Positions 29,957 through 47,890 are shown, counted from the stretch's first letter. The stretch is DNA of 64,000 nt from Dehalococcoidia bacterium (GCA_963692775.1 OY839116.1:3016161-3080160); one strand, 5' to 3'. Program-made: numbers and translations. The notes: generated by a model from the sequence alone, not told the origin.

Positions 29957-30245
29957 CGCGGCGCCCGCAAGCGCTCCTCCTTCAGATCCTCGACGCTGTC
30001 GAGGTCCGGGTGCTGTTCCTGCAAGTAGGCGGGGATGACGAGGCCGATTGCCAGTTGCGGCTGAGGCTCTCGCCGCCAGAGACGACCTCGCCGAGTGCCT
30101 GGGTCTCCTCCCAGGCCTCGATCTGGTTGGGCAGCCAGATCTCCAGCGTAATGTGGCTGTCGCCACGCCGCAGCCCCTGCAGCAGCGGCAGCGCGTGCCC
30201 GAACACCAGCCCCCGAGCCTCCGCAGCCGCGAGGCGACGGCTCAA
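29956..30245 (-). pseudogene. frameshifted internal fragment (~85 codons) of a ProX-like substrate-binding protein gene; duplicate of 33043..33287
   Basis: Two overlapping listed ORFs (29953..30420 and 29982..30245) in different frames together reproduce VFGH.LPLLQGLRRGDSHIT.EIWLPNQIEAW...YLQEQHPDLDSVEDLKEER of the intact gene at 32459..33523. DNA identity is about 90%. Confidence 0.75.
29962..30211. repeat. direct repeat copy A (~250 bp) flanking the LRR lipoprotein insertion
   Basis: Aligns by eye with 33043..33287 with scattered mismatches (about 90% identity). Confidence 0.8.
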
Positions 30246-32200
30246 TCAGGCGGTCCGCACGCCCTGAACGCCGCCTCGCTGAACGGGTCCACCAGGTGCA
30301 AGTTGTTTTCGATGAGACACGAATCCCGTGCGCCCAAGTACTTGTTCTGCGCGCTCCTGATGACCTGGCCGGGGCCGTTCTCGAGGAACAGGATCCCCGC
30401 TTCCAGCATGCGGCTGGCAATCTCGATGCCCTCTCCGGCGAAGAGCGCCCAGCCGATTACGTTGCTGGCGCCTCCCGCAACCTTCACGCCCCTGATGACC
30501 CATTTGGCTGCGTGGCGATATCTGCCGTTGATTGCCAGATGCTGGACCGCGCGGATCTCTATCTTTTCGAGACCTTCCTTCTCGGCGTACTTTCTAATGC
30601 TATCGCTGCGCAACTGCGGATAGTTCGAGAATTGATCGTACGCCAGGACGGACAGGTCCACGAACCCGCGGAGCATGTCGGCCTGGAATTCATTCCAGTA
30701 GTTCCGGGTGTCTGCGGGTTCTTCCTCGGACCACGGGTTGTTCCTGAGGTCCACCGCGATCGTGGCTTCCGCGTTTTCGGCAAACCCATTGTCCAGCAAG
30801 AACTTCGCGCCACTGGTCAACTCGTTGCCGGACAGGTTCAGGACGGCCAGATTCGGGAGGTCGTTCAGCGCCTCCGGAATCGACCCGCTCAGGCCGTGCC
30901 GGCAGATCAGCGTGCAGCCGCGATCACGCTTGTTCCAGGACAGATCCAGCTCGACCAGGTTTTGCAGGTTCTCCCAGTCGATGCCGCGGTCGTGGCCCGG
31001 GTTCTGCTCCTCGATGTCCCCCCGGAACATGTTGCCGGAGAGGTTCAGGTGGGTAAGCGCGGTGAGCTGGTCCAGTTCGGGTGGCAGGGCCCCGCCGAGG
31101 TTGTTGCCGGAGAGGTCCAGGTGGGTGAGGGCGGTCAGGTCGCCCAGCATGTCCAGCCTGTTGTGCCCTCCGAAGAACCCGCCGCTGTCGTTGTCCAGGC
31201 TGACGCCCGGCAGCTCGAGCCCGATGACGCGTCCGCTCTCTTCGTCGACGGTCACCCCATACCAGTCCGCGACATCCCGGTCCTCACTCCACCTCACTCT
31301 ATAGCGGTTGAACTCATCGTCCAGATTCCACCACTCCCACGAATCGCCGTGGGTAGCGTCGTAGAAGCGAATGAGTGCGTCCCGGTCGCTTTCCGCCGAA
31401 CCCGGCGGCCCGGGGGGCTCCGGGTCCGGCGTGGATGTCGGCGTGGATGTCGGCGTGGACGTCGGCGTGGATGTCGGCGTGGATGTCGGCGTGGACGTCG
31501 GCGTGGACGTCGGCGTGGACGTCGGCGTGGACGTCGGCGTGGATGTTGGGGTGGCCGTCGGCGTGGATGTTGGGGTGGCCGTCGGCGTGGATGTTGGCGT
31601 GGATGTTGGCGTGGCCGTTGGCGTGGCCGTTGGCGTGGCCGTGGCCGTTGGCGTTGCTACCGCCGTGAGCGTGGGCGGGCAGGCTTGGTCCCACATCTCA
31701 TCCACCCGCTCCTCCGCAGCCTCGACGGCCGAAGCAGCCCGCAGGAGGGGATCCGAAGCCTCCAGGTTCGCCAGGGAGCGGAGGGCGACACGCGCGAACT
31801 CCCGTACCGCTTCCGCCGAGGCGACAACGGCTCTGTGCAGGGCCTCCAGCCCGTCGGGGACCCGCAGGCCCCGGAGCCGGGTGATGAGATCGCCGAGACG
31901 CGAGACGTGTGCGCTGTGGGGTCCCTCATCGATGATTTCGTCCAGAATGTCTTCTATCTCGTCCGCGAACGGCTCCAGGCTTTCCTCGTAGGCTGCGCAT
32001 GTGGCGGCCGTGGGCCCTCCACGCGCGGCCGCCGCGTCTCCGGTTTGGCCGGCCGTCTGCCCGCGATCCCGCGATTCCCACGGGTTCTCGCCGGATCCTG
32101 AGCCGCCATCGCAGGCGGCCGCCAGCGTGAGAAGCAGGCAGGCCTGAATCAGCGCCAACACGAACGCGTCGCGGAACAGCCGCCTGGGGAACGGAATCAT
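30242..32200 (-). CDS. lipoprotein with PT-repeat linker, leucine-rich repeats and a low-GC C-terminal domain of unknown function
   Basis: LAAAC lipobox; about 90 aa of (T/S/A)PT repeats; LRRs of the form LTALTHLDLSGNNLGGALPPELDQLTALTHLNLSGN. The last ~170 aa lie in ~55% GC DNA. Confidence 0.75.
   Translation of the reverse strand: MIPFPRRLFRDAFVLALIQACLLLTLAAACDGGSGSGENPWESRDRGQTAGQTGDAAAARGGPTAATCAAYEESLEPFADEIEDILDEIIDEGPHSAHVSRLGDLITRLRGLRVPDGLEALHRAVVASAEAVREFARVALRSLANLEASDPLLRAASAVEAAEERVDEMWDQACPPTLTAVATPTATATPTATPTATPTSTPTSTPTATPTSTPTATPTSTPTSTPTSTPTSTPTSTPTSTPTSTPTSTPTSTPTSTPDPEPPGPPGSAESDRDALIRFYDATHGDSWEWWNLDDEFNRYRVRWSEDRDVADWYGVTVDEESGRVIGLELPGVSLDNDSGGFFGGHNRLDMLGDLTALTHLDLSGNNLGGALPPELDQLTALTHLNLSGNMFRGDIEEQNPGHDRGIDWENLQNLVELDLSWNKRDRGCTLICRHGLSGSIPEALNDLPNLAVLNLSGNELTSGAKFLLDNGFAENAEATIAVDLRNNPWSEEEPADTRNYWNEFQADMLRGFVDLSVLAYDQFSNYPQLRSDSIRKYAEKEGLEKIEIRAVQHLAINGRYRHAAKWVIRGVKVAGGASNVIGWALFAGEGIEIASRMLEAGILFLENGPGQVIRSAQNKYLGARDSCLIENNLHLVDPFSEAAFRACGPPD
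31395..31680. repeat. tandem 12-bp repeat (~24 units) encoding the PT linker
   Basis: gtcggcgtggatgtcggcgtggac... units. The antisense listed ORF 31314..31694 shows HADV/HADI repeats. Confidence 0.85.
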
Positions 32201-32458
32201 GCTTTGGGAACTCCTCTAAGGGACATCATAGAGGCCGCGTTAAACCCGCAGACCCGCCGTCGCATAAGTCTTGCTAATGGACCAATGACAGTTTCATAGG
32301 ATGACTGTTACGAAATAACTCCCGGCGGACGTTCGACGACAGTCCTATGGGAGACCATTACGCAAAAGGAGTATGGCAAGCTTCTACATCGGGGGAGCGG
32401 ACGCCGCAAGGGTCACCCCGAAAACGCGGAGTGATGACTCTCACTCGCCGCCGGGCGG

Positions 32459-33523
32459 CTAGCCGGAGGGCCAGCCGGCGGCGGGCTTGCCCTCGGCCAG
32501 CGCCTCGCGGATCGCCTCGGCGGCTTCGGGGGTGACCCAGGCGGTCCAGATCCGCTCGTTGCTGCTCAGCCACCAGCGGGCGGCGTCCTCGGGGCTCGCG
32601 TCGCGCTCGAAGCTCCAGACGGCGAGCGCGCGGTAGACGTCGACGTTGAAGTCCCAGGCGCGCAGCATCGCGACCACGTCCGGCGCCTCGGTCAGCAGCG
32701 AGGGGTGAACCGCGATCAGGATCGTGGTCAACTCGTAGCCGCAGGCCTTCGTGCTGAACCAGCACTCGTCGCTGTACGGCGGCTCATCGAGCCGCACGAG
32801 GTCGAGCACGAGCGCCGGGTCCGCCGTGCCGTCCTGGTAGCCGAGCCACGGCTCGCCCTTCTCGTAGGAGCCGTAGAGGTCGGCGTTGAGCGCGGCGGCA
32901 TCGCCGGGGGCGACGATCGCGATGTGCCCGGAGAGGCCGTAGCCGGCGATCTGGGCGGCGTTGACCTCCTCGCAGGCCCAGCCGATCACGCACGTCACGA
33001 GGCGCGCCTTGCCGCCCGTCTCGGTCGTCGCGAAGAGCGCCCGGAAGCGCTCCTCCTTGAGGTCCTCGACGCTGTCGAGGTCCGGGTGCTGCTCCTGCAG
33101 GTAGCGGGGGATGACGAAGGCCGATTGCCAGTTGCGGCTCAGGCTCTCGCCGACGGAGACGACCTCGCCGAGCGCCTGGGCCTCGTCCCAGGCCTCGATC
33201 TGGTTGGGCAGCCAGATCTCCATGGTGATGTGGCTGTCGCCGCGCCGCAGCCCCTGCAGCAGCGGCAGCGTGTGGCCGAACACCAGCTCCGTCGGGTAGC
33301 CGTAGCCGTGCTCGACGATGTACTGGGCGATGCGGTTCTGGACCTGCGAGCTGGTCCAGGTGAGGTCGTTGAAGACCAGCGTCGGCTTGTCCTCGTCCCC
33401 CGAGCCTGCGCAGCCCGCGGCCAGCAGCGGGACCGCGATCAGCGCCGCGACCAGCGCGCCGGGGAAGGCCGCCCGCGCGCGCCCGTTCGCCGTCCGGACA
33501 GGCTTCATCCGCGTGATGGCCAT
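32459..33523 (-). CDS. glycine betaine/proline ABC transporter substrate-binding lipoprotein (ProX/OpuAC-like)
   Basis: Lipoprotein signal LLAAGC. The listed ORF start is trimmed to MAITRMKPV. Confidence 0.7.
   Translation of the reverse strand: MAITRMKPVRTANGRARAAFPGALVAALIAVPLLAAGCAGSGDEDKPTLVFNDLTWTSSQVQNRIAQYIVEHGYGYPTELVFGHTLPLLQGLRRGDSHITMEIWLPNQIEAWDEAQALGEVVSVGESLSRNWQSAFVIPRYLQEQHPDLDSVEDLKEERFRALFATTETGGKARLVTCVIGWACEEVNAAQIAGYGLSGHIAIVAPGDAAALNADLYGSYEKGEPWLGYQDGTADPALVLDLVRLDEPPYSDECWFSTKACGYELTTILIAVHPSLLTEAPDVVAMLRAWDFNVDVYRALAVWSFERDASPEDAARWWLSSNERIWTAWVTPEAAEAIREALAEGKPAAGWPSG
33043..33287. repeat. direct repeat copy B (inside the intact ProX-like gene)
   Basis: See copy A. 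Confidence 0.8.
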
Positions 33524-33641
33524 CCCGCGCTCCCGTCGCCGCCGCGCCCGTGCGCCGGGTATGGTACACGCGCGCGCCGCGGCGGACGCCTCCGCCGCGC
33601 GGGATCGCGGGCCGCGGAGCGGCCCGGAGGGAGGCAGCGCG

Positions 33642-35024: not shown

Positions 35025-36287
35025 ATGAGCGAGACACCTCCGACGGTGATGATCGAGGACGTGCACGCGGCGCGGGAGCGCATCGCGGGGGCGGTGCGCG
35101 TGACGCCGCTCTGGCCGATCGGGTCGCTGTCCGCGATCGCGGGCGTGCCCGTGCTGCTCAAGTGCGAGCAGTTGCAGCGCGGTGGCTCCTTCAAGTTCCG
35201 CGGCGCCTCGAACATGCTCGCGGCCCTCGAGGAGCGGCCGGACGGCGTGGTCGCGGCCAGCGCGGGCAATCACGCGCAGGGCGTCGCGCTCGCCGCCGCG
35301 GAGCGCGGCATCCCCTCGACCGTGGTGATGCCGGCCAACGCGCCGCTCGCCAAGCAGGCCGCGACGCGCGCCTACGGCGCGGAGGTGGTGCTGCTCGACG
35401 GCGGGCTCGAGGCCTGCATCGCGCGCGCCCGCGAGCTCGCCGCCGAGTTCGGGCTGCTCTTCGTGCCGCCCTTCGACAACCCGGCGGTCGTCGCCGGGCA
35501 GGGCACGCTTGGCCTCGAGGTGCTCGAACAGGCGCCCGAGGCGGAGACGGTGCTCGTGCCGGCGGGCGGCGGCGGGCTGCTGGCCGGGGTCGCGCTCGCC
35601 ATCAAGTCGCTGCGGCCCGAGGTGCGCGTCATCGGTGTGCAGGCGCAGGCGATGCCGGGCATCGCCGCCTCGCTCGACGCGGGCTCGCCGCTGGCCGTGC
35701 CGCTCGTGCAGACCCTCGCCGACGGCGCGGCCGTCGCCGGCCCCTCGGATCTCACGTTCGAGCTGATCCGGCGCCATGTCGACGAGGTGGTCACGGTCGC
35801 CGAGCCGGACATCGAGCACGCGATGGTGCTGCTGATCGAGCGCGCCAAGTTCGTTGTCGAGGGCGCCGGAGCGCTCGGCGTCGCGGCCTTGCTCGCGGGC
35901 GCGGTCGAGTTGGGCGGGCCGGTGGCGGTGGTGCTGTCCGGCGGCAACGCCGACATCAACCTGCTCGGCCGCATCGTCGAGCGCGGCCTGACGGGCGCGG
36001 GGCGGCGTCGGCTGGTGACGTTCGCCGCCGCGCACGCGCCGGGCGAGCTGGCGCGGATCAGCGCGATCATCGCGGGCTCGCGCGCCAACGTGATCCAGGT
36101 CGAGCACCGGCTGACCGGCGACAACCAGCCGATCGGCGTCGTGCTGATCACCTTCCACCTCGATGTCGCGGGCGAAGAGGGCTTCGAGGAGCTGAGCGCC
36201 GCGCTGCAGGAGGCCGGGATGCGGGCCGGCGCCCCCGGCAGCGGCGCCGACTTCGTGACACCGAACGCGCAGGCGCTGCCCTGGTAG
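35025..36287 (+). CDS. ilvA: threonine ammonia-lyase (PLP-dependent, one C-terminal ACT-like domain)
   Basis: SFKFRGA around the PLP lysine. 420 aa, like short-form IlvA. Confidence 0.75.
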   Translation: MSETPPTVMIEDVHAARERIAGAVRVTPLWPIGSLSAIAGVPVLLKCEQLQRGGSFKFRGASNMLAALEERPDGVVAASAGNHAQGVALAAAERGIPSTVVMPANAPLAKQAATRAYGAEVVLLDGGLEACIARARELAAEFGLLFVPPFDNPAVVAGQGTLGLEVLEQAPEAETVLVPAGGGGLLAGVALAIKSLRPEVRVIGVQAQAMPGIAASLDAGSPLAVPLVQTLADGAAVAGPSDLTFELIRRHVDEVVTVAEPDIEHAMVLLIERAKFVVEGAGALGVAALLAGAVELGGPVAVVLSGGNADINLLGRIVERGLTGAGRRRLVTFAAAHAPGELARISAIIAGSRANVIQVEHRLTGDNQPIGVVLITFHLDVAGEEGFEELSAALQEAGMRAGAPGSGADFVTPNAQALPW

Positions 36288-39136: not shown

Positions 39137-39418
39137 GTGATCAGGAGCTACCGGGACAGGGATACCCGGGCGGTCGCCGAAAGGCGACACGTCAGGAAGT
39201 TCCCGCAGGACATCCAGCGCCGCGCGCAGCGTAAGCTCCTGATCCTGAACAACGCGGTGGACTTGAACGACCTCAGGGTGCCCCCGGGGAACCGGTTGGA
39301 AGCCCTGTCAGGAGATCGAGACGGGCAATACAGCATCCGCATCAACAGTCAGTGGCGGATCTGTTTCGTATGGAGCGACGGGAACGCTTGGCAGGTCGAA
39401 ATCGTGGACTACCACTGA
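39137..39418 (+). CDS. higB: HigB-like toxin (RelE/ParE superfamily)
   Basis: IRSYRDRDTRAVAERRHVRKFPQDIQRRA... is HigB-like. GTG start. Low-GC islet. Confidence 0.75.
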   Translation: MIRSYRDRDTRAVAERRHVRKFPQDIQRRAQRKLLILNNAVDLNDLRVPPGNRLEALSGDRDGQYSIRINSQWRICFVWSDGNAWQVEIVDYH

Positions 39419-39439
39419 GCGGCCGAGGGAGAGATCGCC

Positions 39440-39757
39440 ATGACTACTAGCACGGCCCCTGACCCACAGCTCCTGTCCCCGATCCACCCGGGCGAGATCC
39501 TCAACGAGGAGTTCCTGCTACCGATGGGGATTACGCAGTACCGGCTGGCCAAGTCGATCGGCGTCGACGCGCGCCGGATCCACTCCATCGTCCACGGGCA
39601 GCGATCCATCACCGCCGAGACGGCCCTGCTGTTGTCGCGCTTCTTCGGAAACTCGGCGGCCTTCTGGATGGGCCTCCAGAGCCAGTACGACCTCGAGACC
39701 GCCGAGGACCGCCTCGCCGGCCGGCTTGAGGCGGTGACGGCCCACCCGCGGGGGTAG
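39440..39757 (+). CDS. higA: HigA antitoxin (XRE-family HTH)
   Basis: IHPGEILNEEFLLPMGITQYRLAKSIGVDARRIHSIV HTH. Confidence 0.8.
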   Translation: MTTSTAPDPQLLSPIHPGEILNEEFLLPMGITQYRLAKSIGVDARRIHSIVHGQRSITAETALLLSRFFGNSAAFWMGLQSQYDLETAEDRLAGRLEAVTAHPRG

Positions 39758-39763
39758 CCTTCC

Positions 39764-40435
39764 TCAGCTGTTCGTGAAGCGCGGCTCGCGTCGCTTGATG
39801 AAGGCGGCGACGGCTTCCTTGTGGTCGGCGGTCATCATCGACATGCCCTCGGCGGCCAGCGAGTAGTGCATCACGTCGTTCGACATCGCGAGCAGCACGC
39901 GGTTGATCGAGCGCTTCGTCGAACGCACGGCGTAGGGCGCGCCCGCCGCCAGCTTCGAGGCGATCGCCAGCGCCTCGTCGAGCAGCTCGTCGTCCTCGAC
40001 GACCTTGAAGACGAGGCCGATCCGCTCGGCCGTCTCGGCGTCGAGGCGCTCGCCGGTCATCAGGTAGTACTTGGCGTGTTGCGGCCCGGCGAGCAGCGGC
40101 CACAGCAGCGCCCCGCCATCGCCGGCGGTGAGGCCGACCGAGACGTGCGGGTCCGCGAAGACGGCGCTGCGTCCGGCGATCACGATGTCGCCGAGCAGCG
40201 CCGTCGTGCAGCCGAAGCCGAGCGCGTAGCCCTTGACGGCGGTGATCACCGGCTTGTCGTTGTTGAGGAAGCCCTCGACGATCTCGCGCGGCTCGCCGAG
40301 CACGTCGAGCGGGCTCATCCCCTCGCCCCCGCCGCCGAGCCGCTGCTGCACGTCGGCGCCGGAGCAGAAGGAGCGCCCCGCGCCGGTAATCACGGCGGCG
40401 CGCGCTGGCGGGGCGTCTATGATGCGTGGCTGCAT
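39764..40435 (-). pseudogene. N-terminally truncated duplicate of the enoyl-CoA hydratase gene at 41724..42542
   Basis: About 97% DNA identity to 41724..~42347 over ~620 bp. It lacks the first ~60 codons and has no RBS. Confidence 0.6.
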
Positions 40436-40469
40436 CGCGACGTGCCGCGCATACCGAAGGAGGCCCGAG

Positions 40470-41318
40470 GTGGGCGACTACGAGAACATCCTCTACGAGA
40501 CCGACGACGACCAGATCGCAACCATCACCCTCAACCGTCCGAACCAGATGAACGCGATCTCCCCGGACCTCGAGCGCGAGCTCCATGAGGCCCTCGACGA
40601 GGCGGCCGCTGACGACTCGGTGCGCACGATCATCCTCACCGGCGCGGGCCGTGCGTTCTCCGCGGGCTACGACATCGGCCGCGAGCGCGAGGCACCCAGC
40701 ACGCGCAGCGCGACGCTGGCGCAGTGGATGCCGAAGGACATGAACCACACCGACCACGTGATGCACATCATGGAGCTGGACAAGCCCGTGATCGCCGCCG
40801 TCAACGGCTGGGCGCTCGGCGGTGGGTTCTGGTACACCCTCGCCTGCGACATCACCATCGCGTCCGAGCAGGCCGCGTTCGGCCAGCCCGAGGTGCGCAT
40901 GGTGTCGAACACCTCGTTCCTCTTCCCTGCCCTCGTCGGCTGGAAGGTGGCGGCCCGCTACGCGCTCACCGGTGACCACTTCGGCCCCGAGGAAGCCGTG
41001 CGCATCGGCGCCATCAACGAGGTCGTCCCGCACGACGAGCTGATGTCGCGCGCACGCGAGATGGCGAAGCGGCTGGCGATGGTGCCGTCCGACTCCGTGC
41101 GGCTCAACAAGAAGCTCACCACGCTCGGCTTCCACGCGATGGGCCTGCGCAACGCCGTCCAGACCGGCGGACTGATCTCCATCCTCGCGCACGCCTCGAC
41201 AGACGCCGAGGAAGTCGCCGACATGTACGAGGTGCAGCGCAACGAGGGCCTCGGCGCCTTCCTGAAGATGCGCGACGCCAAGTTCATCCCCGAGCCGGGC
41301 GGCCCGCGCTCGCGGTAA
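40470..41318 (+). CDS. enoyl-CoA hydratase/isomerase family protein
   Basis: Crotonase fold (ILTGAGRAFSAGYD). GTG start with a GAAGGAGG RBS. Confidence 0.8.
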   Translation: MGDYENILYETDDDQIATITLNRPNQMNAISPDLERELHEALDEAAADDSVRTIILTGAGRAFSAGYDIGREREAPSTRSATLAQWMPKDMNHTDHVMHIMELDKPVIAAVNGWALGGGFWYTLACDITIASEQAAFGQPEVRMVSNTSFLFPALVGWKVAARYALTGDHFGPEEAVRIGAINEVVPHDELMSRAREMAKRLAMVPSDSVRLNKKLTTLGFHAMGLRNAVQTGGLISILAHASTDAEEVADMYEVQRNEGLGAFLKMRDAKFIPEPGGPRSR

Positions 41319-41336
41319 GCCAAGGGCACGGGCTCC

Positions 41337-41480
41337 GTGACGGAGCAAGACACGACGGCGGCGCTGCCGGACCTCGACGCGATCCGGCGCGCCACCGACG
41401 TGCTCGGCGAGCACCTCTCGCTGCCCACGCCGCTCGTCTACTCACCCGCGCTGTCGGAAGCTGGAATCCAGTTGGCCCGC
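41337..41480 (+). pseudogene. 5' remnant (~47 codons) of a gene, possibly a fold-type II PLP enzyme, cut off by the rearrangement
   Basis: MTEQDTTAALPDLDAIRRATDVLGEHLSLPTPLVYSPALSEAGIQLA has good codon usage, which then collapses into non-coding sequence. Confidence 0.35.
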
Positions 41481-41723
41481 CGGCCTGGCTGCCGCCTCGA
41501 TGGATCGTCGCGCCCTCGTGGGTTCGTGCCCGCCGGGCGTCGGAGAGCGAGCGCTGCGCGCCGCTCAGCCCACCCACCCGCCCTCGGAGTTTCTTTGTGT
41601 GTGGGGGCGGAGCCCCCACGCCCCCGCCGGATCAGGCTCGGGCGGTGCAACCCTCGCACGCGTACGGAGGTTCTGATGGCGTCCGCTCCCGTCTCCCCGG
41701 GGGAAGGGTGGGGGAGGGCGCTC

Positions 41724-42542
41724 CTAGCTGTTCGTGAAGCGCGGCTCGCGTCGCTCAATGAACGCTGCGACGGCTTCCTTGTGGTCGGCGGTCATCATCG
41801 ACATGCCCTCGGCGGCGAGCGAGTAGTGCATCACGTCGTTCGACATCGCGAGCAGCACGCGGTTGATCGAGCGCTTCGTCGAGCGCACGGCGTAGGGTGC
41901 GCCGGCCGCGAGCTTCGAGGCGATCGCCAACGCCTCGTCGAGCAGGTCGTCGTCCTCGACGACCTTGAAGACGAGGCCGATCCGCTCGGCGGTCTCGGCG
42001 TCGAGGCGCTCGCCGGTCATCAGGTAGTACTTGGCGTGCTGCGGCCCCGCGAGGAGCGGCCAGAGCAGCGCGCCGCCGTCGCCGGCGGTGAGGCCGACCG
42101 AGACGTGCGGGTCGGCGAAGACGGCGCTGCGCCCGGCGATCACGATGTCGCCGAGCAGCGCGGTGGTGCAACCGAAGCCGAGCGCGTAGCCCTTGACGGC
42201 GGTGATCACCGGCTTGTCGTTGTTGAGGAAGCCCTCGACGATCTCGCGCGGCTCGCCGAGCACGTCGAGCGGGCTCATCCCCTCGCCCCCGCCACCGAGC
42301 CGCTGCTGCACATCGGCGCCGGAGCAGAAGGAGCGACCGGCGCCCGTGATCACGGCGGCCAGCACGTCCGGATCCTCCTGGATATCGCCTGGCAGCTGTG
42401 CGAACTCCGCGTGCATCACGGCGGTCGAGGCGTTGTGCCGCTCCGGCCGGTTGAGCGTGATCAGCGCGACCCCATCGTCGCGCTTCTCGATCAACATCTC
42501 CGCATAGTTCGCCTGGTCGAGCGTCCTGGCCTCACGCGGCAT
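41724..42542 (-). CDS. enoyl-CoA hydratase/isomerase family protein (intact copy)
   Basis: Start refined to MPREARTLDQ with a GAGGAGG RBS. AVITGAGRSFCSGAD motif. Confidence 0.8.
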   Translation of the reverse strand: MPREARTLDQANYAEMLIEKRDDGVALITLNRPERHNASTAVMHAEFAQLPGDIQEDPDVLAAVITGAGRSFCSGADVQQRLGGGGEGMSPLDVLGEPREIVEGFLNNDKPVITAVKGYALGFGCTTALLGDIVIAGRSAVFADPHVSVGLTAGDGGALLWPLLAGPQHAKYYLMTGERLDAETAERIGLVFKVVEDDDLLDEALAIASKLAAGAPYAVRSTKRSINRVLLAMSNDVMHYSLAAEGMSMMTADHKEAVAAFIERREPRFTNS

Positions 42543-42676
42543 GTTGGTCCTCCTCGGTCGCGCGGGGGAGGGTAGCACTGGGGTGGGGGTGGGGCTGGAG
42601 CGCGCCGGCAGCCCGGAACCGATTCGTGCGGCAGAGGCTGGTTCTGTGGCGTACTACACCACTTCTACACACTATT

Positions 42677-42706
42677 GACAGAATAGACCGGAGGCTGCTA
42701 CATAGA
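42677..42706 (+). promoter_or_regulatory. putative sigma-70-like promoter for the island operon
   Basis: TTGACA-N18-TACATA about 25 nt upstream of the 42732 ATG. Adjacent CTACAC direct repeats. Confidence 0.4.
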
Positions 42707-42731
42707 AGGTCGCAATGAGAGGGAGAGCGGG

Positions 42732-43220
42732 ATGTCGGACCGAAATGGCGTGGGTGAGGACGGATTCCGCGCGGCCTTGGTTGGCCGCCGCGAGGCTCTT
42801 GCAGCGGAGCGCGAGGCGGTGAGCGCGCAGATCAGCAAGCGGGAGCGGAGGCGCTCCGAGATTGAGGAGCAGATCGGACACATCGACGCCCTGCTCGGCA
42901 ATGACGCGGCCGCCGACTCCGCTGCCACACCCCCGACTCCCGAGGCCCGCGACTCCGCTTCCGGCAACGAGACGGCCGATCTGGTGGTTGACCTGCTGCG
43001 CGAAGTCGGGGAGCCCCTCCACTACCGCGAGATCGAGCGGGAACTGCGCGAGCGTGGCGTCCTGAGGGTTGAGGGCAAGAACCCCGCCAACACGCTGCTG
43101 TCCCGATTCTTCAACGACCCACGGCTGTACAGGCCCCGCCGCGGCACCTACGCGCTGCGCAACGGGAGCGCCGCGCGATCGGTCGGTACGAGGCGTAGGC
43201 GCGCGCGCCGGGGGAAGTAG
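42732..43220 (+). CDS. coiled-coil protein with a C-terminal HARE-HTH/Mrr_N-like winged-helix domain (162 aa)
   Basis: N-terminal heptad-like charged helix. C-terminal EPLHYREIERELRERGVL...NPANTLLSRFFNDPRLYRPRRGTYALR pattern. RBS GAGGGAG. Confidence 0.6.
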   Translation: MSDRNGVGEDGFRAALVGRREALAAEREAVSAQISKRERRRSEIEEQIGHIDALLGNDAAADSAATPPTPEARDSASGNETADLVVDLLREVGEPLHYREIERELRERGVLRVEGKNPANTLLSRFFNDPRLYRPRRGTYALRNGSAARSVGTRRRRARRGK

Positions 43221-43222
43221 TC

Positions 43223-45505
43223 ATGGTACAGGCTCAGTGGCCGCTTCCCGGCACGGATCGCGCTACCCGTGAACTCCTTGAGGCGCTCTTGGAGGCAGAG
43301 ACAGAGGCTGACGTGCATGCATGTCTCGATCAGGCGGGCATGCTTGATGACTCGTACTGGCAGCCGTATGGAGGCGTGCAGAACAACAGCGGCACCTTCT
43401 TCAACCAACAGGCGAGCCCGCGAGGCGCGCTTGTCGAGAAGATTGTCAATAGCATCGACGCTGTCCTGATGGCCAAGGCTTTCGAGCACGCTGATTTGCT
43501 GAGTGGTTCCCCGCCAGATTCGATGTTTGGGGCTGCGGACCGCTATTTCGACATCCGCGACGGCCGCCTCTCCGAGGTTCCGGCGGGAGAACGGAGGGCG
43601 ATCGCTCGGCAAGCGGTCCAAGTCGTGCTCTCCGGCAACCGGAGCCCGGGTCGCCCGACCATCACGATCGCCGATCAGGGTGAGGGCCAGAACCCCGAGT
43701 CGTTCCCGGGCACCTTCCTGTCGCTGTCAGCCACGAACAAGATGAAGATCCCGTTCGTCCAAGGGAAGTTCAACATGGGTTCTGCGGGAGCAGTGCCGTT
43801 CTGTGGAGTGCAGCAGAACTACCAGTTGATCCTCTCTCGCAGGCACCCTGCGATACCGGACTCGAACGGACGTTGGGGATTCACGGTCGTGCGCCGTCGT
43901 CCCCCTAAGCCGGATGAGCGAGCTTCTCAGTTCGAGTATCTCGCTCCAGATGGTGCGGTGCTCAGTATCGGCGCAGACACCGTGCCGCTATGGAAGAACG
44001 GTGACGGAAGCACTTCGGAAGTAGGACACGGCAGCCTCGTACGACTGTACGAGTACGATATCCAAGAACGGACTGCCGCGAACTTTGACTTTTCCCGGAT
44101 GCTGAATCGCCGACTGTACCGGCTACCACTACCGATCCAGGTCATCGAGACCCGAGGCTTTAGGCGGGCCAACAACGAGGAAGTCGTCCCCGGCTTGGCT
44201 ACGCGACTCGATGAGGATACGTCCAATGATGTGGAACACGGCTTTCCCGTGTCCGACCGCATAAGGGTTGAGGGTGTCGGGTGGGTGCGCGTCTCACTGA
44301 TCCCGTTCCGTGAAGACGTGAACATCAGCCACTGGGTGACCGCATCTGAGAGCGTGATATTCACGGTGAATGGTCAAGCGCACGCATTCGAGGCACGGGA
44401 CTTCTTGCGGCGCGACACGCGAAGCGGGGCAAACTACCGTTATCTGGCGCAGAGCTTGCTAGTTGAGGTTGACTGCTCCGAACTAGGCAGCATCGAGCAG
44501 TTGTTCATGGGCTCTCGCGACCGAATGCGGGACGGCGAACAACGCACTGCGCTTCTGCGTGCACTTGCGGGGCACCTTCGTCGGCATAAGGGGCTCCGCG
44601 AGCTGAATCACAAGCGACGCGAGGCAGCGATACAGCGCTCAGTCAAGAGCAACGTCAAGACCAGTGAGATGTTTGAGAAAATGATCGCTGCGTCGCCCAC
44701 GATAGCGGCTTTGCTCAGCGGCGGAGCTATCCCAGCGCCCGTCGCCCCAACGCCGCCACCGGTTGTCGTTCCATTTGAGGGGCAGCGGTTCCCGACTTTC
44801 CTCAAGTGGGCCAAGGGCGGTCCTGTACGCGAGAAGCGCTGTCACCTTGGGTCGTACTGCCTGCTCGAGCTTGAGACGGATGCTTCCAACGACTTCCTCT
44901 CGCGATCGATCGAGCCCGGGATTCTTGATGTCGCCCCATCAGGCTGGTCAGTGAGCGAGAAGCTATGGGACGGGAGCCTTCAGATTCGGTTGGAACCACC
45001 GGTTGGCATCCAGTCGGGGCAGAAAATCCCGCTTAGGGTCACGCTCATGTCTGATGCTCCACCGGAAGTTCCAGATGTGCTCGAAGTCGAAGGTCGACTT
45101 GTGGTCGATCCACCTGTCGAGAGTCCGCCGCCGCCGCCGCCTCCTCCTCCCCGGCCGAAGGTTGCTCCACCAGAGATTCTGGAGGTGAGGAGGGATGCTT
45201 GGTCAGCTCACGACTTTGACGAGCATTCGATTGCTCGCGTGGACAAGGCGGATGGTAAGACCATCGTGTTCGTCAACATGGATAGTCAGGGGTTGGTCGC
45301 CTACGTACGCACCGAGCGGCAGCGAAGAAGCGAGCTTGAGGAGATGTACAAGCTTGCGGTGGCTCCCACCGCCATCTCACTGGAGCGGGCTGTTGCGGAC
45401 GAGGAAATCACGAGCGCGCAGGCGGACAAGGCTCTAGCCGCCGTAGGCGCTGTATTGCTCCCCGCCGTCGACTTCGCGGCGAAGGTCGCGCAAGAGGCGG
45501 AGTAG
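43223..45505 (+). CDS. MORC/HATPase_c_3-like GHKL ATPase, 760 aa, with long unassigned C-terminal region and a poly-Pro tract
   Basis: N-box ALVEKIVNSIDAV, G1 ITIADQGEGQN, G2 QGKFNMGSAGAV. Starts 2 nt after the upstream stop. GC is about 58%. Confidence 0.7.
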   Translation: MVQAQWPLPGTDRATRELLEALLEAETEADVHACLDQAGMLDDSYWQPYGGVQNNSGTFFNQQASPRGALVEKIVNSIDAVLMAKAFEHADLLSGSPPDSMFGAADRYFDIRDGRLSEVPAGERRAIARQAVQVVLSGNRSPGRPTITIADQGEGQNPESFPGTFLSLSATNKMKIPFVQGKFNMGSAGAVPFCGVQQNYQLILSRRHPAIPDSNGRWGFTVVRRRPPKPDERASQFEYLAPDGAVLSIGADTVPLWKNGDGSTSEVGHGSLVRLYEYDIQERTAANFDFSRMLNRRLYRLPLPIQVIETRGFRRANNEEVVPGLATRLDEDTSNDVEHGFPVSDRIRVEGVGWVRVSLIPFREDVNISHWVTASESVIFTVNGQAHAFEARDFLRRDTRSGANYRYLAQSLLVEVDCSELGSIEQLFMGSRDRMRDGEQRTALLRALAGHLRRHKGLRELNHKRREAAIQRSVKSNVKTSEMFEKMIAASPTIAALLSGGAIPAPVAPTPPPVVVPFEGQRFPTFLKWAKGGPVREKRCHLGSYCLLELETDASNDFLSRSIEPGILDVAPSGWSVSEKLWDGSLQIRLEPPVGIQSGQKIPLRVTLMSDAPPEVPDVLEVEGRLVVDPPVESPPPPPPPPPRPKVAPPEILEVRRDAWSAHDFDEHSIARVDKADGKTIVFVNMDSQGLVAYVRTERQRRSELEEMYKLAVAPTAISLERAVADEEITSAQADKALAAVGAVLLPAVDFAAKVAQEAE

Positions 45506-46702: not shown

Positions 46703-46945
46703 CGTTCGCGCCCTTCGCTGCTGCGGGATCGCGCGCCGCGCGCGACATGCGGAGCGTCTGTCGCCGCTCGATGCGTGTCAAGGCGCGGGCGGGGGCCGTC
46801 AGGCCGGCGGGGCGGCGCGGATGAGGCGAATGGGCTTCCGGTGCGTGTCAGGCGCGGGGAGCGCCGATCGTGCGGTCGGCAGGAGTCGATGAAGGCTGCC
46901 CTGTACAGTTGCCCGTACGCTGCGCTGTTGACGGGTGGGCGGCCG

Positions 46946-47560
46946 ATGACCCTCTCCGAAGCCCGTGCTCGTGTTGTCGAGGCGATTCGCCGCTCTCTCG
47001 CGTCCGGCGCCGAGCCTCTCGTGGTGAGTCTCGACGGCCGCAGCGGCGCCGGGAAGTCCACGCTGGCGTCGCGGGTGGCCGGGGAGACGGGCGCCGCAGT
47101 CGTCCCGCTGGACGACTTCTTCGCGGCGTCGATCCCCGATGCCGAGTGGGACCGGATGACCGTCGAGGAGCGCGCGGCGAACGTCTTCGACTGGGCGCGG
47201 TTCCGCTCGGAGGCCCTTGAAGCGTTGATCGCGGGGCGAACCGCCCGCTGGCGCGGGTTTGACTTCGACGCCGGGCCGCGCGCCGACGGAACCTACGAAA
47301 CGAAGACCGCGGCGATCGAGCTTGAACCGGCCTCCGTCATCATCATCGACGGCGCCTACTCGTCCGGGCCGCAACTCGCCGACCTCGTTGGTCTGGCGGT
47401 GCTGGTGGAGGCTCCGGCCGGGGAGCGGCGAGCGCGGCTGGCCGGACGCGAGGAGGCGCGGTTCCTCGCCCGCTGGCACGCCCGTTGGGACGCGGTCGAG
47501 GATTACTACTTCTCCGAGGTCAGGCCTCGCAGCTCGTTCGACCTCACGGTCACCTGCTAG
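46946..47560 (+). CDS. P-loop kinase (uridine-kinase/AAA-like)
   Basis: LDGRSGAGKSTLA Walker A. The start could be 46889 or 46946. Confidence 0.6.
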   Translation: MTLSEARARVVEAIRRSLASGAEPLVVSLDGRSGAGKSTLASRVAGETGAAVVPLDDFFAASIPDAEWDRMTVEERAANVFDWARFRSEALEALIAGRTARWRGFDFDAGPRADGTYETKTAAIELEPASVIIIDGAYSSGPQLADLVGLAVLVEAPAGERRARLAGREEARFLARWHARWDAVEDYYFSEVRPRSSFDLTVTC

Positions 47561-47890
47561 CGGTGTCCGCGGGCGGGGCAAGGGGAAGCAAAGGGCCGGG
47601 CTTGACGCCCGGCCCATGCGTTGCGAGTCCGACGAAACGGGCTCACTGGCCTGCGCACCCAAACGGATCGTCGCTCCCGGGAGGCGCGTTGTCAAAGGGG
47701 GCAGCGCGCCTCCGCTCCAGTCCCTCTCCCGGTCCCCCGTCATTCCGGCGAAAGCCGGAATCCAGGTACGCCAACCCACCGCGCTGGGGGGAGACCATCT
47801 GCCATCGGGGCCTTCGGGGGCGGGGGGAGTCCTCCCCCTCACCCCGGCCCTCTCCCCAGGGAGAGGGGGGCGGAGGGGAGGCGGCCCGGC

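Follow-up and report, generated by a model that had tools for sequence, protein, structure and literature searches.

Gene fragments left by illegitimate recombination are common, and the scar described here is of this ordinary kind of genome evolution, traceable in unusual detail. One of the closest described systems is template switching of the FoSTeS/MMBIR type. Microhomology and similar junction signatures have been listed for iterative template switching (PMC5120786). As in FoSTeS/MMBIR events, our locus combines a copy-number gain (~0.65-0.9 kb) with ~1.1 kb of DNA from another locus placed exactly at the duplication junction, and ~1-5 nt of microhomology are present at both junctions, one of which lies in a hairpin loop. 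Descriptions and tests of the model, however, come mainly from human and yeast genomes, whereas the present case concerns a bacterial chromosome and is read from sequence alone. A second relative, homology-facilitated illegitimate recombination (HFIR), is known from natural transformation (de Vries & Wackernagel 2002, as cited in PMC6382021). In HFIR, homology anchors the incoming DNA at one end, a role that the resident crotonase gene ECH-A would play here, and a microhomology of 3-10 bp serves for the join at the other. HFIR normally leaves the anchor unduplicated and adds the foreign DNA beside it, so that the original duplication at our locus needs an extra step.

The third comparison is with Campbell-type integration of a circle that carries an internal gene fragment, which yields a truncated copy, the insert and a complete copy, the direct repeats being the segment of homology. 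This is also the order found here, but the insert is without plasmid, replication or selection functions, the sequence of the truncated copy is not linked to the cassette, and a circular form has not been seen. Finally, the three genes ECH-A, ECH-B and ECH-C all belong to PF00378, as in the crotonase paralogue families of Chloroflexota. Expansions of catabolic-enzyme paralogues have been reported in two studies of marine SAR202 Chloroflexota (PMC6946804, PMC10444878). Unlike in those expansions, the paralogue at our locus was relocated or acquired rather than diverging in place, and membership in SAR202 is not assumed for the organism studied here.

We analysed a stretch of 64,000 nucleotides from a Dehalococcoidia bacterium (GCA_963692775.1, OY839116.1:3016161-3080160), hereafter the window, and compared it with related loci (L numbers). 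The features of the region are as follows.

39137-39757, plus strand: HigB/HigA toxin-antitoxin pair (PF05015 and PF01381), abutting the stop codon of copy 1
39766-40399, minus strand: copy 1, a 5'-truncated, very probable pseudogene covering codons 62-272 of ECH-A (3'-terminal 634 bp)
40393-40405, no strand: junction J1, joining ECH-A codon 62 to a point ~70-77 bp 5' of ECH-B, with a possible ~5-nt microhomology (GCGGC)
40400-40469, plus strand: imported region 5' of ECH-B, aligning to the native ECH-B upstream region and 93-99% identical among carriers
40470-41318, plus strand: ECH-B, an intact 282-aa crotonase-family gene (PF00378, E = 5.9e-49, 167.1 bits, profile positions 4-207)
41337-41458, plus strand: PALP 5' remnant of 41 codons, collinear with L012 8872-8993 and also with L016 and L021, non-functional
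41456-41462, no strand: junction J2, joining PALP codon 41 to the loop of a native intergenic hairpin, ATTCCGGC-GAAA-GCCGGAAT; microhomology of 1-3 nt
41459-41723, no strand: 265 bp of duplicated 3' flank native to ECH-A (intergenic region, IG), including a GGGGGCGGAGCCCCC hairpin at 41605-41619
41724-42542, minus strand: copy 2, full-length ECH-A (272 aa; PF00378 profile positions 3-250 of 251, 168.5 bits)

The region is likely to be a scar left by a single complex illegitimate rearrangement, which took place in an ancestor of some Dehalococcoidia/Chloroflexota lineages of the sponge-metagenome type and was later remodelled. A piece of ~1.06-1.2 kb would have been copied from a separate cluster of ECH-C, ECH-B and PALP and placed at the 3' terminus of the resident ECH-A, whose last 634 bp would have been copied a second time along with it; in the form seen in the window, 265 bp of the ECH-A 3' flank would have been duplicated too. 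The resulting order would be an ECH-A 3' fragment (copy 1), ECH-B, the PALP stub, the 3' flank and the complete ECH-A (copy 2). Copy 1 and the PALP stub would be dead by-products, and ECH-B, as a gain, and copy 2, as the resident, would both be working genes.

The two copies of ECH-A form a direct repeat. In a self-comparison of the window, 39766-40399 aligns with 41726-42359 without gaps over 634 bp, at an offset of 1960 bp and with 95.4% identity. A 634-bp match at 95% identity cannot have arisen by chance. The sequence-only reading of this DNA had rightly recognized a true duplication starting at the stop codon, and the duplicated segment is indeed the 3' two-thirds of one crotonase gene; its length of ~620 bp placed the inner end of a real repeat ~13 bp short, and its identity of ~97% was slightly too high. 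The copies differ by 29 mismatches and by their stop codons (TGA vs TAG), that is at 31 of 636 sites, with 27 synonymous and 2 non-synonymous coding differences (dS 0.19, dN/dS 0.02). A simple tandem segmental duplication would consist of two copies, head to tail, of a contiguous ancestral segment with a single novel junction; what is found is ~1.06 kb of DNA from another locus between the copies and two novel junctions, J1 and J2.

Copy 2 is preceded by a ribosome-binding site, GAGGAGGA, at 42547-42554 (plus-strand coordinates), upstream of the gene. Orthologues of ECH-A with 94-99% protein identity occur in 10 related genomes, in the same place between UGSC/HigBA and a MaoC-like gene, and dN/dS values for ECH-A lie between 0.03 and 0.09. 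We regard copy 2 as the working resident gene.

ECH-B, the different crotonase gene already noted between the copies, is only 31% identical to ECH-A. Its ribosome-binding site, GAAGGAGG at 40456-40463, was imported along with it. The reading frame is intact in the window and in the 10 other carrier loci compared, with dS of 0.015-0.07 and dN/dS of 0.02-0.16, a pattern which indicates that the insertion brought in a working gene, with ECH-B as its functional cargo. Downstream of native ECH-B lies a PALP gene of 330 aa (PF00291), which NCBIfam models place near threonine dehydratases, below the family cut-off. The ~47 well-formed codons previously described from 41337 onwards are a real coding-like stretch, of which 41 codons (41337-41458) are homologous to PALP. 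They had been attributed to a disrupted gene for a PLP-dependent enzyme. They do represent the 5' remnant of such a gene, codons 1-41 of the 330, but it was not disrupted in place: it was copied in with ECH-B. The stub in L017 is longer, keeping 80 codons including an ...AFKLRGG... segment; the window stub stops before that segment, and the PLP-lysine region is not retained in the window.

The native source architecture, the conserved cluster ECH-C(-)<>ECH-B(+)->PALP, is present in L012-L015 and L021 and in part in L016 and L026, all from related Chloroflexota. The window is collinear with this native locus from ~40395/40438 to 41458, at 87-89% nucleotide identity, and the piece extends from ~75 bp 5' of ECH-B through PALP codon 41 (codon 80 in L017), or ~1.06-1.2 kb. 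Its collinearity with these loci indicates that ECH-B and the PALP stub are one piece copied from a different locus. The nearest native ECH-B loci are 87-89% identical in nucleotides and 93-95% in amino acids (dS ~0.35-0.38), and the closest ECH-B proteins in native or other contexts (L016, L021, L026) likewise show 93-95% identity; those at ≥99% identity (P0001-P0008) are all found in the same duplicated context. No donor of the piece was found: an exact 29-mer scan of JGI metagenome contigs was empty, and a protein search with the 85-aa PALP stub of L017 returned short fragments only. Exact-protein look-ups of copy 2, ECH-B and P0001 gave no records, and look-ups based on homologues succeeded. 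The template, being 11-13% diverged from any sampled source, could equally well have come from the same genome or have been foreign, taken up by transformation.

The empty site is represented by eight related genomes, in which a single ECH-A lies directly between UGSC/HigBA and the MaoC-like gene, without ECH-B or insert. J1 and/or J2 are carried by 11 other assemblies (L002, L005, L017-L020, L022-L025), which include representatives of two GTDB species. At J1, homology between the repeats stops at 40399, and homology to native ECH-B loci begins at 40393-40395 (L016, L026) or at 40438 (L012-L015, L021). J2 was located by aligning the window with two sets of sequences, the native PALP loci and, from L019, L017 and L002, the intergenic region next to UGSC; the hairpin in whose loop it falls is a computed fold. 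With the nearest native sequence 12% diverged, the breakpoints of both junctions can be placed only to within ±~5 nt. Among the carriers, the right junction exists in two forms, the window type and the L017 type; of these, the L017 type, in which a longer PALP stub runs into a HigA-type flank, is probably the older.

The stretch from 41459 to 41723 had been described as non-coding DNA with a hairpin. The hairpin is there, at 41605-41619, but the DNA is the native 3' flank of ECH-A, duplicated with the gene fragment: the same sequence lies between UGSC and ECH-A or copy 1 in L019, L017, L002 and L003, and it is present as a single copy in the window. The first ~175 bp of the flank are near-identical among carriers, and identity falls sharply at ~41635 in L002, L005 and L019. 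We also considered the intergenic region as a repeat element or MITE and rejected this, as neither the window nor unrelated parts of the compared loci contain further copies. A search of the spacer for an RNA gene, promoter or terminator gave no Rfam match above noise and no promoter or terminator site fitting a consensus. Homeologous recombination between ECH-A and ECH-C was likewise rejected as a source of J1, which lies ~75 bp 5' of ECH-B, within the native intergenic region and not in ECH-C. The truncation of ECH-C seen in L016 is an independent deletion.

The locus does not qualify as a mobile element (IS, transposon, integron cassette or integrative island), the hallmarks of which would be a gene for a transposase, an integrase or a recombinase, inverted repeats at the ends, an attC or att site and a short target-site duplication; the 'target duplication' here has a length of 0.65-0.9 kb. 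Between 39.76 and 42.54 kb, the only genes are the crotonase copies and the PALP stub. In 38.9-42.8 kb, no transposase or integrase gene is present, the inverted repeats reflect crotonase paralogy only and none is terminal, and there are neither Rfam families nor tRNA-like sequences.

What is present is microhomology and a templated insertion at the breakpoint of a copy-number gain (~5 nt at J1 and 1-3 nt at J2, for breakpoints placed to ±~5 nt), as in FoSTeS/MMBIR junctions. The rearrangement may have come about by two template switches during replication or repair, that is by a FoSTeS/MMBIR-like duplication with templated insertion; HFIR of imported DNA would fit equally. The 1-5 nt of microhomology at both junctions, and the position of one junction in a hairpin loop, are consistent with template switching and equally with HFIR. 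HFIR would also explain how a window-type J2 could derive from an L017-type junction and how the cassette entered diverged genomes. We infer molecular mechanism and order of events from these end products, and template switching, HFIR and integration of a circle predict the same product, which sequence by itself does not separate; nor does sequence distinguish an origin in replication or break-induced replication from end-joining.

After its formation, the cassette would have spread by homologous recombination in the flanks, and the ECH-A copies would have continued to exchange sequence. In the same genome pairs that give a dS of 0.015-0.07 for ECH-B, the flanking genes (AKR, a 411-aa gene, UGSC, ECH-A and MaoC) have dS values of 0.12-0.26. 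ECH-B is thus far less diverged than its neighbours, which suggests that the cassette travelled between diverged lineages through homologous recombination in its flanks.

These data bear on a different view of the spread, in which the 1.96-kb unit would be a homology-armed mobile cassette free of any recombinase. Recombination between the repeats would excise a circle, and a single Campbell-type crossover would let it re-enter at ECH-A and recreate the duplication, making the duplication itself the vehicle of spread. The topology is exactly what a Campbell integration produces, an insert between two stretches of homology of which the left copy is truncated; a recombinase or transposase is neither needed nor present, and identity switches sharply within the duplicated flank. 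Across species-level lineages, the divergence of ECH-B is 3-15 times lower than that of the flanks, and if this view were true, the duplicated ECH-A arms would explain that difference. We nevertheless regard it as unlikely. Copy 1 should then travel near-identical up to J1; instead, it is 3-7% diverged and mosaic among carriers. The same data follow from ordinary double-crossover replacement of the whole locus, neither circular junctions nor multi-copy arrays have been seen, and two illegitimate junctions are still required at the origin.

The divergence between the copies was earlier taken as a clock. On that reading, ECH-A was recently duplicated in tandem at its own locus, an event that cut one copy short and broke a resident gene for a PLP-dependent enzyme, near-identity being a sign of youth. 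The repeat is indeed direct and 95.4% identical with copy 1 truncated, and the low dS of ECH-B among carriers suggests that the cassette is younger than the divergence of the host genomes. However, ECH-B and the PALP stub are missing from the eight single-copy relatives and are collinear with another locus, which argues for import, and the 11 other assemblies share the structure, with three deletion states of copy 1 and two forms of the right junction. Recency thus fails on the very point that had been named as decisive against it, namely relatives with the same structure and diverged copies. Between genomes, ECH-A orthologues differ at 27-50 of 636 sites (dS 0.16-0.26), and the divergence of copy 1 from copy 2 (31 of 636, dS 0.19) equals this. 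The 27:2 bias towards synonymous differences is also incompatible with neutral drift since duplication. Taken together, these observations make a recent tandem event quite improbable.

Gene conversion, which had been offered as an alternative to a recent event, fares better. In L019, copy 1 and copy 2 differ at only 1 of 174 sites, and beside the junction, copy 2 of the window carries the haplotype of copy 1 in L020 and L024. ECH-A sequences are mosaic in their relationships and there is no copy 1 clade; we therefore rejected any dating of the duplication by the divergence of its copies. The differences between the copies appear to reflect allelic and inter-copy exchange, not age. Although copy 1 seems dead, the copies differ by ~5%, and almost only synonymously, because sequence passes between them and is also exchanged with functional alleles from other strains.

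Copy 1 is very probably a decaying pseudogene, truncated and dead, as had been proposed from its loss of the first ~60 codons and of a ribosome-binding site. Relative to the 10 orthologues of 272 aa, it has lost codons 1-61, and its PF00378 match (133.9 bits) begins only at profile position 39, so that positions 1-38 of the crotonase fold are absent. The mechanical reading frame at 39764-40435 (223 aa) opens with 12 unrelated codons, its start codon sits within imported non-coding DNA, and its sole in-frame ATG is not preceded by a Shine-Dalgarno-like sequence, in contrast to copy 2. Copy 1 occurs as three structural alleles: full length, a 278-bp deletion (40140-40417 in window coordinates; L002, L022, L023) and a 419-bp deletion with a flanking GGCGC repeat (39941-40359 in window coordinates; L005, L017, L018, L019, L025). 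The two deletions are independent, neither length is divisible by 3, and together they affect 8 of the 11 other carrier loci.

Could copy 1 nevertheless be alive, with selection acting on a truncated 223-aa crotonase or on an antisense transcript through HigBA into ECH-B? The reading frame is intact in the window and has been called as a gene of 223 aa in L024 and of 219 aa in L020. The low dN/dS between the copies points the same way, as do the variants private to copy 1, which comprise 17 synonymous and 6 non-synonymous changes, vs 68 and 10 in functional copies. Relaxed constraint on copy 1 is shown by its deletions, not by its substitutions. However, the synonymous bias is accounted for by the demonstrated exchange with functional copies; we attribute the non-neutral pattern to such exchange, of which import from unsampled functional alleles would be a part. 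With frame-destroying deletions in most related carriers, no ribosome-binding site, a start codon in imported DNA and part of the profile missing, a living copy 1 is very improbable.

The chance of an assembly artefact from a collapsed or duplicated contig join, a caveat raised earlier to which only the general repeat risk of metagenome assemblies lends weight, is negligible, since the 11 other assemblies show the structure, identical junctions recur in different samples, both in short-read scaffolds assembled independently (L005, L017, L019, L025) and in contigs or chromosomes from long reads (L002, L018, L020, L022-L024; of these, L020 and L022-L024 have only 3-4x long-read coverage, where errors are possible), and 31 differing sites between the copies are not those of a duplicated read pile.

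The rearrangement thus provides a well-resolved natural case in uncultured bacteria, with both junctions, the source locus and the empty site at hand, and with the dead copy visible in three states of decay and the right junction in two forms. It offers evidence that a single 1-kb metabolic gene can move across diverged lineages through homologous recombination in its flanks, and suggests one concrete route by which crotonase-type paralogue families may be reshuffled. It also calls for caution: under frequent recombination, near-identity and synonymous-only differences neither date a duplication nor prove that a truncated copy functions.

Copy 2 and ECH-B give full-length PF00378 matches above the gathering score, which places both in the crotonase superfamily. 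No NCBIfam equivalog cut-off is reached (best scores of 231 bits vs 292 for ECH-A and 183 vs 253 for ECH-B). At what we take to be the catalytic Glu positions, read by eye from an alignment of the two proteins, ECH-A has T and H, and ECH-B retains the second Glu only. The name 'hydratase' is accordingly no more than a family-level label for both. The neighbouring 760-aa reading frame has no match in Pfam, NCBIfam, PADLOC or PDB sequences. The neighbourhoods of the crotonase genes are rich in CoA-transferases, MaoC-like dehydratases and acyl-CoA dehydrogenases. HigBA is present or absent in carriers and non-carriers alike, and is context, not part of the scar.

The resident crotonase gene ECH-A is partly duplicated, and its two copies enclose a second crotonase gene together with the 5′ remnant of a PALP gene (PF00291, threonine-dehydratase-like). 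The features are as follows, with the two junction positions accurate to about ±5 nt.

39766-40399, minus strand: copy 1, ECH-A codons 62-272 only
~40393-40405: left junction J1, ECH-A codon 62 joined to the upstream region of ECH-B
40470-41318, plus strand: ECH-B, a 282-aa PF00378 protein, 31% identical to ECH-A
from 41337, homology to 41458, plus strand: coding-like stretch between the copies, 3′ of ECH-B (PALP 5′ remnant)
41456-41462: right junction J2, PALP codon 41 joined to the loop of a native-flank hairpin
41605-41619: GGGGGCGGAGCCCCC hairpin inside a ~265-bp non-coding flank
41724-42542, minus strand: copy 2, complete ECH-A, a 272-aa crotonase (PF00378 profile positions 3-250 of 251)

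The repeat noticed in the sequence-only reading is real: 634 bp match without gaps at an offset of 1960 bp (39766-40399 versus 41726-42359). It begins at the stop codons as described, and these differ (TGA versus TAG); identity is 95.4% rather than ~97%, and the inner end required correction to 40399/42359. A GAGGAGGA ribosome-binding site precedes copy 2, and no Shine-Dalgarno sequence was found for the mechanical ORF 39764-40435, which consists of copy 1 and 12 unrelated codons, so that the reported lack of the first ~60 codons and of a ribosome-binding site in copy 1 holds. By eye, in a pairwise alignment of the two proteins, both canonical crotonase catalytic glutamates appear to be absent from ECH-A (…GFGCTTALL…, …FADPHV…), and only the second appears to be kept in ECH-B (…FGQPEV…). 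Judged from these residues, both proteins are unlikely to act as textbook enoyl-CoA hydratases, and no curated NCBIfam equivalog names either protein.

When one genome per GTDB species was searched with ECH-A, ten close loci were recovered (94-99% amino-acid identity), all from Dehalococcoidia/Chloroflexi MAGs, with taxonomic and sponge-habitat context as read from record titles and sample names only. In eight of these (L001, L003, L004, L006-L010) a single ECH-A is bordered directly by a UGSC-family gene (HigBA present or absent) on one side and a MaoC-like dehydratase gene on the other, and both ECH-B and the repeat are absent. This is the undisrupted arrangement that the sequence-only reading proposed to look for in relatives.

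ECH-B homologues (90-95% amino-acid identity) occupy another conserved cluster, in the order ECH-C (256 aa, minus), ECH-B (plus), PALP (330 aa, plus) and acyl-CoA dehydrogenase (minus), with ECH-C divergent from ECH-B. It is found in L012-L015 and L021, and in partial versions in L016 and L026. Window positions 40438-41458 are collinear with this cluster at 87-89% nucleotide identity, and against L016 and L026 collinearity holds already from 40393-40395; the donor locus itself was not found among the loci compared, the nearest being 87-89% identical. The imported piece (~1.06 kb) begins ~75 bp before the ECH-B start codon and ends at PALP codon 41. Because of this collinearity, 41337-41458 is the 5′ portion of a gene for a threonine-dehydratase-like PLP enzyme; a PLP-dependent enzyme had been suspected. 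NCBIfam threonine dehydratase models match the PALP gene below cut-off. However, the remnant has 41 codons rather than 47, and it was imported with ECH-B rather than disrupted in place: no complete PALP gene ever existed at this position. The source-type locus is itself unstable, with ECH-C in two fragments in L016 (5649-5877; residues 57-107 and 233-255) and ECH-B without a downstream PALP gene in L026 (1681-2883). Two database proteins of 80-83 aa, P0125 and P0126, are other short N-terminal PALP fragments annotated as genes on Mb-scale contigs, and may be comparable remnants at other sites. An intact 420-aa PALP gene (threonine-dehydratase-type) 5 kb upstream (35025-36287), kept in relatives, is a paralogue distinct from the remnant.

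The non-coding DNA with the hairpin, into which the sequence-only reading saw the codons dissolve, is native intergenic sequence from the 3′ side of ECH-A (41459-41723, ~265 bp). L019, L017, L002 and L003 also have it between UGSC and either ECH-A or copy 1, and the window has no further copies. The duplicated unit in the window form is therefore ~0.9 kb long, of which ~265 bp are flank and 634 bp are gene. Within this flank, the GGGGG-CGGAG-CCCCC hairpin has its loop flipped to CTCCG in most relatives, and a ~90-bp intergenic piece is inverted in L007 (10986-11074) and L010 (10985-11072), which suggests template-switch or inversion mutations at the palindrome.

The window structure recurs in eleven further assemblies (L002, L005, L017-L020, L022-L025), with L002 and L005 representing two GTDB species. 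The assemblies stem from separate samples, some built on short reads and others on long reads, which excludes an assembly artefact; some of the comparison contigs have just 3-4x coverage. Copy 1 comes in three states. The window, L020 and L024 have it whole; it has lost 40140-40417 (278 bp, including J1) in L002, L022 and L023, and has lost 39941-40359 (419 bp, GGCGC direct repeat at the ends) in L005, L017, L018, L019 and L025. The length of neither deletion is divisible by three, so copy 1 is dispensable and decaying, in keeping with its proposed pseudogene status. In L017 the right junction differs: 80 PALP codons are joined directly to the HigA-stop-type flank of copy 2, and the intergenic segment is absent. 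The extra PALP stretch is ~90% identical to native loci, as diverged as the rest of the insert. We infer that L017 has kept an older form, in which case the window-type J2 would stem from a second illegitimate event involving an allele that lacks HigBA.

Two illegitimate junctions are seen at this site, each with microhomology, along with an insertion templated on another locus and a copy-number gain next to it. At J1 ~5 nt of microhomology (GCGGC) are possible; at J2, in a perfect 8-bp hairpin (ATTCCGGC-GAAA-GCCGGAAT), 1-3 nt. Transposase and integrase genes, terminal inverted repeats and Rfam-type RNAs are all absent, and scans of the spacer found no consensus promoter or terminator sites. 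The junction signatures are those described for FoSTeS/MMBIR (PMC5120786), and we infer that two template switches during replication or repair are the most economical origin. In that case the nascent strand would depart from ECH-A at codon 62, take ~1.1-1.2 kb of the ECH-B/PALP locus as its template and return at a position behind the point where it left. Homology-facilitated illegitimate recombination of transformed DNA (PMC6382021) is an equally possible route, and the best candidate for how J2 was later remodelled and how diverged genomes were entered. The least ordinary reading, a cassette that carries its own homology arms and needs no recombinase, is unlikely. Campbell-type circle integration would yield the observed topology but, fitting the sequence relationships of copy 1 poorly, is poorly supported. 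All components are of known kinds (crotonase superfamily, PALP fragment, partial-duplication pseudogene, complex microhomology-mediated rearrangement); the process is ordinary, and the detail of its record here unusual.

Between the copies 29 codons differ, 27 synonymously (dS 0.19, dN/dS 0.02). A neutrally drifting fragment is expected to gain mostly non-synonymous changes. The divergence equals that of orthologues across genomes (27-50 differences per 636 sites), and no copy 1 clade formed among the ECH-A sequences compared. The pattern is mosaic: in L019 the copies differ at 1 of 174 sites, window copy 1 near J1 is closest to the single-copy L001 allele, and window copy 2 near the junction carries the copy 1 haplotype of L020 and L024. 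The differences therefore reflect imported allelic variation and exchange between copies, which lends support to the gene conversion alternative. They are neither a clock nor evidence of copy 1 function, and near-identity, in a structure shared by eleven other assemblies, does not mark a recent event. Variants private to copy 1 show a weak, non-significant non-synonymous excess (6/23 versus 10/78 in functional copies).

ECH-B is intact in all carriers of the structure, with dS of 0.015-0.07 and dN/dS of 0.02-0.16 between window and carriers, so the gene is functional and has been maintained. Flanking genes (aldo-keto reductase, 411-aa gene, UGSC, ECH-A copy 2, MaoC) give dS of 0.12-0.26 in the same genome pairs. 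Among carriers the non-coding PALP stub is 97-99% identical, as are the first ~175 bp of flank beyond J2, and flank identity collapses near 41635 in L002, L005 and L019. Since ECH-B, stub and proximal flank are less diverged than the flanking genes, the cassette is 3-15 times younger than its backgrounds. It has probably spread either by homologous recombination in the flanks between diverged lineages or by a sweep through a recombining population. Even so, it is old enough for synonymous divergence of up to 7% and several structural variants to have built up.

A HigB/HigA toxin-antitoxin pair (39137-39757) adjoins the copy 1 stop codon and is present or absent in carriers and non-carriers alike; the ECH-A stop codon tracks the flank, being TGA with the HigA type and TAG with the intergenic type. 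Segments 29960-33615 and 46790-47890 are missing from all ten related loci, with both sides kept at 84-94% identity, and are further variable islets. A low-GC islet (42584-45505; 0.60-0.64 versus ~0.72 around) separates the ECH-A start from the MaoC-like gene and contains genes for a HARE-HTH protein (42732-43220) and a 760-aa ORF (43223-45505). Searches of Pfam, NCBIfam, PADLOC and PDB sequences gave no match for this ORF, and by eye its ‘ITIADQGEGQ’ stretch resembles GHKL ATPases. Nothing occupies this site in L001, L004 and L005, while L019 has an SLFN_AlbA_2 gene there and L009 a ~75% related copy; this varying content marks the site as an insertion hot spot, perhaps one for defence genes.
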